32,000 nucleotides of DNA, taken from NCBI GenBank assembly GCA_026002795.1, contig BPGA01000001.1, positions 420,001-452,000 of the forward strand, in the 5' to 3' direction. This document shows, one piece after another, positions 19,906 to 21,539 of the stretch. Numbering within the stretch: position 1 is the first letter of the stretch; the number at the start of each line of letters is the position of its first letter. The notes beneath the pieces are model-generated. The model was not told where the DNA came from. It worked only from the letters and a program-made list of their open reading frames with translations, and did no database searches. The DNA is from Candidatus Saccharimonadota bacterium. GTDB taxonomy: Archaea; Nanobdellota; Nanobdellia; Pacearchaeales; GW2011-AR1. The translations under genes were made by a program, and so were the position numbers.

Positions 19906-21441
19906 ATGGGAATAATTCCATCAAATCCTCAAAGGATTAACAGATGGAATTTAATCCCTCCAAGCTGGAAAGCAGATGTAGATAAATCTCTTCTTAATGT
20001 GCTTTCATTAAATAGAAAATTCATAAAAAATCTAGAAAATGATGTTAGAAAAATATCTTTTCTTTCTCCAGAGGACTTTTTGAGTAACTTAATTTCTTCT
20101 TGGTATAATCATAATACTTTTTTTTCTTCCCTAATCCCTTTTTTGATTTCCTTACCCGAAGATGGGCATATAACACAACTGCAAGCTATTAGTATTCAAA
20201 AAATTCTTAATGATATGGGATTAGTTGATAGAATAACTCTTTTGCATTCATTAGCAATAAAACCTTTGCTTGAAAGAAATCACGAAATTGGATTTATCCC
20301 ATTTAATTCTTTTTACATTGATTATCTCTTAGACCATCATGATCTAGTCTGCTGTGATGCTAGTTTGGAGGATATAATCCAAAAATATCATGGGAATTCT
20401 GTAGAACTTTTTGAACAGAGAAAAAATAGAGGAATCCTGTCAAAAATTTTTTCCGGAATATCTGATGATCGTGAAAGAAAAGAATTAAGAAAGTTAAAAG
20501 AAAAAATGTTTTTAAGTGCGTTGTATGATTATTTCATTGATCGACCAAATAAAGTTAAAGCTCTTGTGAAAATATCTACAATAGATAATTTTGATGAATA
20601 TAGATTTTTGTATAATCTTGATGGAATAGAAGGATTTTATTTAAAAGATTATCTTATAAGAAATGGTCTTTTAGAAGATACACGATCTGAAATAGAAAAT
20701 TTATTAAATTACTTTGCTCTATTAAATGTAAGGATGGAAAGAACACCACAAGAGCAAGGGCTTAATTATAAAAAATTGCCTTTTTATGTACAATCAAGCA
20801 GGGTAAGTTGTGCATCAACGTGTGCAATGATGGTCTCTAATTTCTTTTACAGTGAAGATGTTTCAAAAGAAAGAGAAGACCAATTTCACTCTGCCGTTAA
20901 ATCTGCTTATCTAGAAGGTTGTCCTTTTTCCAAAATAGCTCTTACTTTATCTAGAATGTATCCTCAATTAAAGATTAGTCTTCATCACACAGATCCGAAC
21001 CTATTTGATATTGAAAAAGTAAGAAATTTATTTGGCGATTTGGGAATATTGGCAGTTAAAGAATACAAACAAACCGCAGAAGAAGCAGAAAAAAATGGTG
21101 TAACAATAGACATTCAAGAGGATATTGAAGAAGTTATACAAAAAACCCTTGATTATGGAGGAGTTTATATGGCAGCTACTAATCTTGGTGGAGGAGTTTT
21201 ACATTCTGAACTCATAGTTGGGAAAAATAAAACAAAATTTGCGGTTTATAATCCATTAAATGGAAATATAGAGTTAATAGATTGCCGAGAATTTAAGAAA
21301 AAGATGCAAACTCCTATAGGAGTATGGGGTATTAGCTTTATTGCCTTACCTGGAGAATCTAAAGAATATAAATCTTCGATTGAGTGGTTTAGAAAAAAAG
21401 ATGAAGAATTAAAAGATATGGGAATCATACTAAGCAAATAA
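19906..21441 (+). CDS. Soluble protein with an unknown helical N-terminal region (~290 aa) and a C-terminal papain-fold C39-like cysteine peptidase domain
   Basis: YVQSSRVSCASTCAMMVSNFFY matches the C39 Q-x5-C-x3-[CAS]-x-M pattern (oxyanion Gln plus catalytic Cys). Downstream, GVLHSELIVGKNKTKFAVYNPLNG matches the His ... [DN]P-x-G part of the triad. No TM or ABC domain. The track start at 19804 overlaps the divergent gene, so I prefer the ATG at 19906 (MGIIPSNPQ...). Confidence 0.7.
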   Translation: MGIIPSNPQRINRWNLIPPSWKADVDKSLLNVLSLNRKFIKNLENDVRKISFLSPEDFLSNLISSWYNHNTFFSSLIPFLISLPEDGHITQLQAISIQKILNDMGLVDRITLLHSLAIKPLLERNHEIGFIPFNSFYIDYLLDHHDLVCCDASLEDIIQKYHGNSVELFEQRKNRGILSKIFSGISDDRERKELRKLKEKMFLSALYDYFIDRPNKVKALVKISTIDNFDEYRFLYNLDGIEGFYLKDYLIRNGLLEDTRSEIENLLNYFALLNVRMERTPQEQGLNYKKLPFYVQSSRVSCASTCAMMVSNFFYSEDVSKEREDQFHSAVKSAYLEGCPFSKIALTLSRMYPQLKISLHHTDPNLFDIEKVRNLFGDLGILAVKEYKQTAEEAEKNGVTIDIQEDIEEVIQKTLDYGGVYMAATNLGGGVLHSELIVGKNKTKFAVYNPLNGNIELIDCREFKKKMQTPIGVWGISFIALPGESKEYKSSIEWFRKKDEELKDMGIILSK

Positions 21442-21446
21442 GGAGG
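21441..21446 (+). promoter_or_regulatory. Shine-Dalgarno-like AGGAGG, 5 nt upstream of the sORF ATG
   Basis: Read directly. It is one of only two intergenic AGGAGG hexamers I found by eye in the window (the other is at 604..609). Most genes here lack any SD. Confidence 0.45.
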
Positions 21447-21451
21447 AAAAA

Positions 21452-21499
21452 ATGGAAAGAAATCTTGACCTAGTTTTAGATTGTATCTGTACAACATAA
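21452..21499 (+). CDS. Candidate RiPP precursor sORF, 15 aa: MERNLDLVLDCICTT
   Basis: ATG 21452, TAA 21497..21499. It starts 10 nt after the C39-like gene stop and ends 40 nt before the YcaO gene. It is preceded by AGGAGG and followed by a GC hairpin plus T-run. The C-terminal Cys/Thr cluster (CICTT) is the residue type that YcaO enzymes modify. No upstream in-frame alternative start exists (in-frame stop at 21431). It is too short for statistical gene calling. Confidence 0.35.
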   Translation: MERNLDLVLDCICTT

Positions 21500-21507
21500 G
21501 TTTATTT

Positions 21508-21536
21508 TGGCCCTTTAATGGGCCATTTTATTTTTT
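21508..21536 (+). terminator. Hairpin (TGGCCC-TTTAAT-GGGCCA) followed by TTTTATTTTTT; candidate terminator or attenuator between the sORF and the YcaO gene
   Basis: Read directly: 6-bp perfect stem at 21508..21513 and 21520..21525, 6-nt loop, T-rich tract at 21526..21536. It is by far the most GC-rich element in this spacer. Confidence 0.4.
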
Positions 21537-21539
21537 AAG

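Follow-up and report, generated by a model that had tools for sequence, protein, structure and literature searches.

A conserved, unannotated 15-amino-acid gene beside a YcaO gene of a Pacearchaeota genome suggests a minimal YcaO peptide cassette of new architecture

Results

An unannotated short gene between two annotated ones

The window, that is, the whole 32,000-nucleotide stretch of DNA analysed here, carries on its forward strand an unannotated short open reading frame (sORF) enclosed between two annotated genes. The upstream gene (19906–21441) encodes a protein of 511 amino acids (aa), KatS3mg001_509 (100% match to P0010), hereafter called the partner, and the downstream gene (21540–23318) encodes a YcaO protein of 592 aa (100% identity to KatS3mg001_510). 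Both are proteins of a metagenome-assembled genome of Candidatus Pacearchaeota (DPANN archaea) and lie on a 535-kb contig. The 98-nt gap between the partner gene and the YcaO ATG at 21540 contains the sORF (21452–21499, 48 bases), which runs from an ATG to a TAA (21497–21499) and encodes 15 aa plus stop, MERNLDLVLDCICTT. It is preceded by a perfect Shine-Dalgarno (SD) sequence, AGGAGG (21441–21446), whose first base is the last base of the partner stop codon TAA (21439–21441) and which is separated from the ATG by five A's. Downstream, on the same strand, lie the hairpin TGGCCC-TTTAAT-GGGCCA (21508–21525) and the T-run TTTTATTTTTT (21526–21536), which ends 3 nt before the YcaO ATG. The GenBank locus tags pass directly from KatS3mg001_509 to KatS3mg001_510, thus the sORF is absent from the annotation. 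The SD, sORF, hairpin, T-run, and YcaO start had been listed with their positions in a preliminary description made from the sequence alone, and every one of these positions is exact.

The sORF codes for a protein and is under purifying selection

The sORF was compared across nine independent close loci, the window included, and one distant locus (L011), for a total of ten. Loci L001, L002, and L003 were recovered through the YcaO protein, L006, L007–L009, and L010 through the partner protein, L004 and L005 with a degenerate DNA pattern for the peptide, and L015 and L016 through an exhaustive profile search with the N-terminal domain of the YcaO protein (N-domain). This YcaO subfamily is exceedingly scarce, amounting to a few clusters out of 5.8 billion; the GTDB species-representative contigs gave neither a YcaO relative nor a match to the degenerate peptide pattern, and no relative was found among viral contigs.

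In the nine close loci and in the distant one, a homologous open reading frame of 15–18 aa, with intact start, stop, and SD, lies beside the YcaO gene. The encoded peptides are MKRNLDLVLDCLCTA (L001), MERNLDLVLDCLCTA (L002), MKRDLDMVLDLVCTT (L003), MKRNLDLVLDCVCTT (L004), MKRNLDLVLDCVCTS (L006), MEKRDLDLVLDLVCTA (L009, the same as L005), MEERNLDLVLDLLCTA (L010), and MQKEERNLDLVEDCLSSI (L016), and in the distant cluster L011/L012 the peptide is MKKIIKKFNKKSDLLCTA, preceded by GGGAGGTGAT. The peptide is nearly constant among the close loci, while their YcaO proteins range from 78% down to 34% identity to that of the window; the YcaO protein of L011/L012 is only 29% identical to it.

The substitution pattern is that of a coding sequence. 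Indeed, the variable sites at codon positions 1, 2, and 3 were 7, 1, and 13, each out of 13 (chi-square p = 0.006), so that third positions are saturated (13/13) against a single variable site at second positions. The pooled Nei-Gojobori proportions of synonymous (pS) and nonsynonymous (pN) differences were 0.84 and 0.13, with pN/pS of 0.155. Conversely, the spacer 3′ of the sORF stop, 17–43 nt long, cannot be aligned between loci, and an Rfam search of window positions 21000–22000 gave no match. Because substitutions in the sORF are mostly synonymous while the flanking spacer diverges, the sORF is a protein-coding gene rather than a chance open reading frame, with its peptide, start, stop, and SD under purifying selection. 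The preliminary description had made its reading depend on whether orthologous spacers keep the reading frame and a Cys/Thr C-terminus, and on conservation at the amino acid level. The reading frame, the SD, and a cyclisable C-terminus are retained, and the peptide stays while divergence accumulates at synonymous sites and in the remainder of the spacer.

An SD-like motif was found in 10/10 loci, at 4–9 nt from the start codon in nine of them and at 14 nt in L009. In the window, such a motif is exceptional: among 29 gene starts examined, GGAGG lies upstream of the sORF only, and a 4-nt SD core precedes only about two or three others, which bears out the earlier remark that most genes here have no SD. 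A second 15-codon sORF led by AGGAGG had also been pointed out, and it is present (AGGAGG 604–609, ATG 613 to TAG 660, MKNKIRKKQFLNCYY); it holds the palindrome AACAATTT-TT-AAATTGTT and lies just before a gene at 670. GGAGG occurs 36 times on the two strands of the window versus 14.5 ± 3.8 expected from shuffles. Hardly any of these copies lies ahead of a gene start, so SD use does not account for the excess.

The sORF and the YcaO gene travel together

The loci show four gene orders. The order partner-sORF-YcaO is found in the window, L001, L004, L006, L010, and L002, where the partner is divergent; the order is sORF-YcaO-partner in L009; sORF, hairpin, partner, a gene for a 113-aa protein, and YcaO in L011; and, in L016, a partner reduced to its helical domain is followed by sORF-YcaO. 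Across several rearrangements, the sORF has therefore stayed with the YcaO gene.

The two genes are also lost together. L007/L008 and L009 are Tara Oceans haplotypes with flanks 99.5–99.95% identical that differ by a 3.9-kb segment. L009 carries the full sORF-YcaO-partner cassette (919–4780), and in L007 (6022–6766) and L008 a 745-nt replacement removes together the sORF and YcaO residues 1–478, the first 80% of the protein, leaving a 118-aa C-terminal YcaO remnant before an intact partner gene. The sole locus in which no sORF was found is L015 (1827–5253). Its partner is broken into two pieces, an N-terminal one of 39 aa and a C-terminal one of 174 aa, the latter without the catalytic Cys, its YcaO protein (P0016) has a longer linker, and genes of the PEP-utilizers and PPDK_N families follow directly; L015 is a decayed version of the cassette.

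In L003 (contig Ga0256752_1007661) the sORF (904–951) lies inside the called 613-aa YcaO open reading frame (444–2285), in the +1 frame, and is preceded by the 10-base SD GGGAGGTGAT; the whole nested region spans 889–959. The nested sORF is a 57-nt insert that coincides with a 19-residue insertion in the linker between the N-domain and the YcaO part of the protein, and an in-frame ATG at 957, 5 nt past the sORF stop, is followed by T7/T8/T7 runs. It looks as if a precursor gene had been overprinted in the gene of its own enzyme. Transfer RNA genes bracket this YcaO gene, with Ser-GGA, Lys-CTT, and Glu-CTC upstream (90–342) and Ser-CGA downstream (2332–2417), and no partner gene lies between them; the YcaO gene with its nested sORF may be a mobile or inserted unit.

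In the distant L011 (1866–2040) the sORF has a TTG start at 1882, encodes a peptide ending in SDLLCTA, and lies upstream of the C39-like gene. The 113-aa protein encoded between partner and YcaO showed no similarity to the N-terminus of the window YcaO and no Pfam match. A RelA/SpoT gene adjoins this locus, so its host may be bacterial (possibly of the candidate phyla radiation) rather than archaeal.

The peptide has a fixed C-terminal pattern

The close-family consensus is M[EK]R[ND]LD[LM]V[LE]D-[CL]-[ILV]-[CS]-[TS]-x-stop. Across the ten loci, exactly five residues lie between an invariant Asp and the stop codon, in the pattern D-[C/L]-[I/L/V]-[C/S]-[T/S]-[T/A/S/I]-stop, in agreement with the earlier proposal of a leader of about 10 aa and a core of 5 aa; the window peptide can thus be split into the candidate leader MERNLDLVLD and the candidate core CICTT. 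The first core Cys (position −5) is replaced by Leu in four loci, hence it is dispensable. L016 has Ser at both position −3 and position −2, where the other nine loci have Cys and Thr, respectively. Cys, Ser, and Thr are thus interchangeable at fixed positions, which fits a cyclodehydratase substrate, and the Cys to Ser change at the same position disfavours a thiol-specific function. The N-terminal part, ERNLDLVLD, is kept in the close family and is replaced by a basic sequence in L011; judging from this pattern, it behaves like a lineage-specific leader.

The likeness of CICTT to the plantazolicin core, proposed in the preliminary description, turns out to be superficial, with one cyclisable position pair conserved and the first Cys being Leu in four loci. 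To our knowledge, the window peptide may be the shortest precursor linked to a YcaO. The broader earlier claim, that it would rank among the shortest precursors of any peptide that is synthesized ribosomally and modified post-translationally (RiPP), does not stand, as biarylitide precursors are 5 aa long (PMC13417212).

The YcaO protein carries a rare fused N-terminal domain

The YcaO domain (Pfam PF02624, E 2.6e-26) covers residues 260–564 (window 22317–23231, forward strand). Its ExxER ATP/Mg motifs, E268/E271/R272 and E376/E379/R380, are invariant across ten family members. The best NCBIfam model is TIGR03604 (SagD/TOMM type, where TOMM stands for thiazole/oxazole-modified microcin), and, in a search of the family profile against PDB, the cyanobactin heterocyclases MusD, TruD, and LynD were matched at E values from 6e-19 to 3e-16. 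The window protein ends in LPTPFA; its clade has PTPFA or PMPFA (PxPxA), and P0005, P0015, and P0016 have PHPFP, PDPFP, and PMPFP, respectively. YcaOs that form azolines are associated with a C-terminal PxPxP motif (PMC12338566).

The N-domain occupies residues 1–155 (window 21540–22004, forward strand) and is followed by a linker. In eight sequences, K61-S62-Y63-G64, D110, and H135 are invariant, in the contexts GKSYG (TKSYG in L003) and G-[DN]-H135-S-L, and the order of these motifs (nucleophile elbow G-x-S-x-G, Asp, His) is that of an alpha/beta-hydrolase triad. The domain is rare: in a profile search, only 5 of 1.84 billion protein representatives carry it, and the search reached family members only, plus one stand-alone homologue. 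This homologue, P0017 (L017 5001–5498, GCA_003694965.1), is a 165-aa protein with GKSYG, SDPYV, and GDHSL, whose gene adjoins a TsaD/Kae1 gene and has no YcaO in its vicinity, and it probably represents the free-living type from which the fused domain descends. P0017 has sub-threshold matches to Abhydrolase_1 (E 1.3e-3), Abhydrolase_11 (E 4.8e-3), and PDB entry 4l0c (E 0.01); the window N-domain itself gave no alpha/beta-hydrolase match. The N-domain looks like a rare fused domain of the alpha/beta-hydrolase kind.

The partner combines a helical and a papain-like domain

The partner protein consists of a conserved, all-helical domain of no detectable family (residues ~12–252) and a papain/C39-like cysteine peptidase domain (residues ~291–480, window 20776–21345, forward strand). 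In a five-member alignment Q296, C302, H433, and N/D449 are invariant, with the Gln 6 residues before the catalytic Cys. The AlphaFold2 model has a predicted local distance difference test (pLDDT) score of about 80–90 over residues 301–480, and its Foldseek matches include the C39 domain of ComA (TMt 0.73), the C39-like protein 3erv, PCAT1, and papain-like toxins. All five members (5/5) show a weak match to Pfam DUF3335, “Peptidase_C39 like” (13.5 bits for the window protein versus a cut-off of 25), and the window protein has no Pfam C39 or C39_2 match at E ≤ 0.01. Furthermore, the full-length homologue of L011 (hhalign 99.7%, E 5e-27) exceeds the Pfam cut-offs (C39_2 29.7 > 24, C39 22.7 > 22). 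The “C39-like” label of the preliminary description is thus backed by fold, catalytic residues, and transitive homology through L011.

The AlphaFold2 model of the N-terminal 300 residues has low confidence, and the enkurin and proteasome ATPase matches of this region (Foldseek, PDB sequence) were discarded as noise. A defence or toxin role, prompted by the papain-like toxin matches, was also set aside, as nothing else supports it; PADLOC returned nothing for the three proteins.

Structured elements follow the sORF in half of the loci

The window hairpin has a folding energy of −12.5 kcal/mol (z = −2.8), with 3/200 shuffles folding as well, and is the sole convincing terminator-like site on this strand within 19500–24000. 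In archaea, oligo-T alone can terminate transcription, and the T-run TTTTATTTTTT is a possible termination or pause signal of this type.

Hairpins of unrelated sequence follow the sORF in 5/10 loci, namely the window, L004 (−14.5 kcal/mol, z −2.5), L006 (−8.6 kcal/mol, z −2.5), L011 (−24.6 kcal/mol, z −3.6, a perfect 15-bp stem, TATAATGCCTTATAT/ATATAAGGCATTATA), and, more weakly, L016 (−12.9 kcal/mol, z −1.7). None was found in L001, L002, L003, L009, and L010, the five short-spacer loci. The sequences compared have 25–38% GC. Hairpins are matched by ≤3% of shuffles in 4/10 loci (binomial p about 1.5e-4), so a structured element after the precursor gene is enriched. Being found in 5/10 loci, the hairpin is common but not required; a T-run of five or more occurs in about 4/10 loci and is not conserved. 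The attenuator role proposed in the preliminary description is plausible for this genome; since neither element is conserved among the loci, it is not a defining part of the system. The TTTAAT of the hairpin loop (about −24 from the ATG) was considered as a possible archaeal TATA box of a leaderless YcaO mRNA and put aside, since comparable AT-rich strings are everywhere in these sequences.

Genomic surroundings

The rest of the window encodes archaeal housekeeping functions: Mre11/Rad50, the proteasome, FttA, a CCA-adding enzyme, OapB/OapC, RtcB, archease, and a type IV pilus. The origin-associated protein genes OapC (11177–11572, forward) and OapB (11711–12115, reverse) are divergent within 11177–12115, which suggests a replication origin nearby. 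On the reverse strand, divergent from the cassette, positions 15638–19824 encode three secreted or surface-type proteins without a Pfam family: one of 660 aa, whose N-terminus is lipoprotein-like and which carries the metalloprotease motif HEVGH, and two Cys-rich ones of 175 and 474 aa. These three proteins are not conserved beside the cassette in other loci.

Discussion

Proposed mechanism

The best reading of the locus, as far as sequence comparison can carry it, is a minimal YcaO RiPP cassette of new architecture made of partner, peptide, and YcaO. In it, the peptide would probably be the substrate of the adjacent YcaO protein and be modified to an azoline. The RiPP-precursor interpretation of the preliminary description gains from the retained reading frame and C-terminus, from the kept linkage to YcaO, and from the leader/core pattern, while the modification itself is something we infer.

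The strong SD, exceptional in a mostly SD-less genome, would ensure that the 15-mer is translated at a high level within the operon mRNA, and in about half of the lineages the hairpin, with or without oligo-U, could stabilise or terminate a short precursor transcript. The acidic N-terminal decapeptide (ERNLDLVLD) may serve as a mini-leader bound by YcaO, by the helical domain of the partner, or by both. Using ATP, YcaO would activate the backbone amide before the Cys/Ser at −3, and cyclodehydration would give a thiazoline or oxazoline, possibly with further cyclisation at the Thr/Ser at −2 and, where present, at the Cys at −5. Since no dehydrogenase is linked, the ring would probably stay an unoxidised azoline. 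The papain/C39-like domain would then cut off the leader, plausibly at a site adjoining the invariant Asp just before the five-residue core, and the Ser-Asp-His N-domain of YcaO may trim or process the C-terminus, so that the predicted product is a modified peptide of about five residues.

Several observations weigh against this reading. Neither Pfam nor NCBIfam gave an E1-like/Ocin-ThiF or RiPP recognition element (RRE) match in the YcaO N-terminus, the partner, or the neighbours, and it is possible that a leader-binding analogue, such as the helical domain, has gone undetected. A SagB-type flavin mononucleotide (FMN) dehydrogenase was found neither in the 32-kb window nor in related loci, and the window proteins and neighbours include no ATP-binding cassette (ABC) exporter or ABC domain. 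In addition, 10/10 peptides lack Gly and show no GG/GA/GS cleavage motif, as the preliminary description had already observed of the window peptide for double glycine. L016 keeps only the helical domain of the partner, so leader removal by the peptidase domain cannot be universal. On the enzyme side, the C-terminus of the window clade is PTPFA and not a strict PxPxP, the match to TIGR03604 (95.1 bits) does not reach the cut-off of 219.25, and the AlphaFold2 model of the YcaO protein, built on a four-sequence alignment, has a pLDDT of 43, too poor for fold or binding site. The thioamide-forming MJ1094 of Methanocaldococcus jannaschii is matched by the family profile (E 1.4e-16) about as well as the cyanobactin heterocyclases, thus sequence similarity does not settle the chemistry. 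Finally, every comparison locus is a single metagenomic contig.

Alternative explanations

The comparable match to MJ1094 brings in the first alternative, namely that the peptide is a YcaO substrate receiving another modification, either a backbone thioamide (TfuA-independent, with sulfide, like that made by some YcaOs of methanogens) or an amidine. The archaeal host and the lack of a dehydrogenase or E1-like partner would agree with a thioamide; the window encodes no TfuA. However, cyclisable Cys/Ser followed by Thr/Ser at fixed positions, including the Cys to Ser swap, are not needed for thioamidation, the window YcaO scores 20.8 bits against the methan_mark_1 equivalog model, whose cut-off is 365, and the C-terminus PxPF[A/P] is as in azoline-forming enzymes (PMC12338566). 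We consider this alternative unlikely.

The sORF could also act as a regulatory upstream open reading frame, its translation or a stalling nascent peptide controlling the SD-less YcaO gene and the peptide staying unmodified. In most loci the SD-less YcaO start lies 17–43 nt past the sORF stop, L003 has its in-frame ATG 5 nt after that stop, and the hairpin/T-run elements of some loci resemble attenuators. The rearranged loci fit this explanation poorly: in L011 the sORF is upstream of the partner gene, with the 15-bp hairpin between them, and not adjacent to YcaO, and in L003 it is internal to the YcaO open reading frame. Moreover, neither the length nor the sequence of the spacer is conserved, most genes here are SD-less with no need of an upstream open reading frame, and the conserved C-terminal Cys/Ser-Thr/Ser suits a substrate better than a stalling motif. 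Such a regulatory role is thus improbable, and we give it little weight.

Tight co-inheritance with YcaO, very small size, and one near-invariant Cys would also suit a peptide that assists the YcaO/partner complex as a small subunit or cofactor, such as an activator or a Cys-based carrier, without being a substrate. Against it, the Cys is replaced by Ser in L016, which speaks against thiol-specific chemistry, and the leader-plus-core layout with a co-encoded peptidase fits RiPP logic; no YcaO enzyme with a subunit of 15 aa is known to us, and we regard this explanation as very improbable.

Lastly, although fifteen codons alone cannot be scored and short open reading frames are common in an AT-rich genome, the idea of a chance open reading frame within conserved DNA that is non-coding (specifying an RNA or binding a protein) is effectively refuted by the comparative data, that is, by the codon-position variability (7/1/13) and pN/pS given above, by start, stop, and SD kept in ten loci, and by the lack of an Rfam match and of a conserved structure across the sORF.

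Returning to the azoline cassette, a bolder version of it can be put forward only tentatively. The cassette might represent an extremely rare, hitherto unrecognised RiPP-like pathway of DPANN archaea that turns a 15-aa peptide into an azoline product of about five residues by means of a hydrolase-YcaO fusion and a helical-peptidase partner, with no canonical leader-recognition partner. Instead of serving as a classical bacteriocin, such a product could work as a small cofactor, metallophore, or signal, and in one lineage the precursor gene would be carried overprinted in the enzyme gene, between tRNA genes, as a self-contained unit.

Whatever its product, the sORF is a genuine 48-base gene for a protein, missed by GenBank and by gene callers, and comparing a handful of metagenomic contigs sufficed to validate a gene so tiny. 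For DPANN archaea, it supplies the first concrete candidate for the precursor of a YcaO cluster. At its length, the putative substrate can be purchased as a synthetic peptide, which makes the chemistry directly testable with one recombinant enzyme. With no usual leader-binding partner and two family-less domains, the cassette could reveal a new way in which YcaO enzymes recognise very short substrates, and the nested copy of L003 would be one of few cases in which a precursor gene is overprinted inside the gene of its enzyme.

Comparison with known systems

YcaO/RiPP clusters are broadly predicted in archaea, including DPANN, and their products are almost unknown (PMC12144867); we found no paper on a Pacearchaeota YcaO or on the sORF peptide. 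A more conventional archaeal TOMM-like cluster, unrelated to the cassette, is present in L013 (1063–3158, GCA_964534185.1) and L014; it encodes a 72-aa candidate precursor ending in ITCKGCKPMPQPGCRPPCKSYRPETNN, a 380-aa YcaO (P0006), and a nitroreductase-family (SagB-like) protein.

The cassette would work much as the pathways of the bottromycin type, discussed below, or those of TOMMs and linear azol(in)e-containing peptides, such as microcin B17, streptolysin S, plantazolicin, klebsazolicin, and phazolicin. With the TOMM and linear azol(in)e clusters it shares an ATP-dependent YcaO beside a small precursor with C-terminal Cys/Ser/Thr, a PxPxP-like YcaO C-terminus, and the SagD type as best NCBIfam match. 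Unlike these clusters, it has no E1-like/Ocin-ThiF (RRE) partner and no SagB dehydrogenase, and its TIGR03604 score is below the cut-off. Its precursor is of 15–18 aa, with one to three cyclisable residues in a five-residue core at the extreme C-terminus, its YcaO is fused to a Ser-Asp-His N-domain, its partner is helical plus papain-like, and its host is a DPANN archaeon.

The methanogen marker 1 YcaO (MJ1094), which makes the thioglycine of McrA, is likewise archaeal and comparable in profile similarity, and YcaOs of the McrA type can work without TfuA. Its substrate, however, is a large enzyme and not a dedicated peptide, and Pacearchaeota offer no McrA context.

The YcaOs of the bottromycin type also lack an E1-like partner and form a heterocycle near the C-terminus, before a short stretch that can be trimmed. 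The bottromycin pathway includes BotH, a protein of the alpha/beta-hydrolase fold, which recalls the N-domain. In contrast, the “follower” of the cassette peptide would be of one or two residues, the radical S-adenosylmethionine methyltransferases, P450, and amidohydrolase of that pathway are absent, and the proteins of the two systems are unrelated in sequence beyond the YcaO domain. Cyclisation before removal of the follower is a pattern summarised in PMC12338566.

The partner resembles the C39 domains of exporters (ComA, PCAT1) and the Peptidase_C39_2 and DUF3335 families in its papain-like fold, in its Gln/Cys/His/Asn-Asp residues, and in being encoded beside a peptide gene. It differs from them in having no ABC fusion, in a peptide without Gly-Gly or Gly-Ala, in scores below the Pfam thresholds in the window, and in a conserved 290-aa helical N-terminal extension of no known family.

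Finally, as a tiny gene missed by automatic annotation and lying beside a modifying enzyme, the sORF recalls BytA, the 5-aa biarylitide precursor. MccA, the 7-aa precursor of microcin C, is likewise encoded beside its modifying enzyme. Those precursors are processed by a P450 and by the adenylyltransferase MccB, respectively, and have no leader, whereas the peptide described here keeps a conserved N-terminal part of 10 aa.

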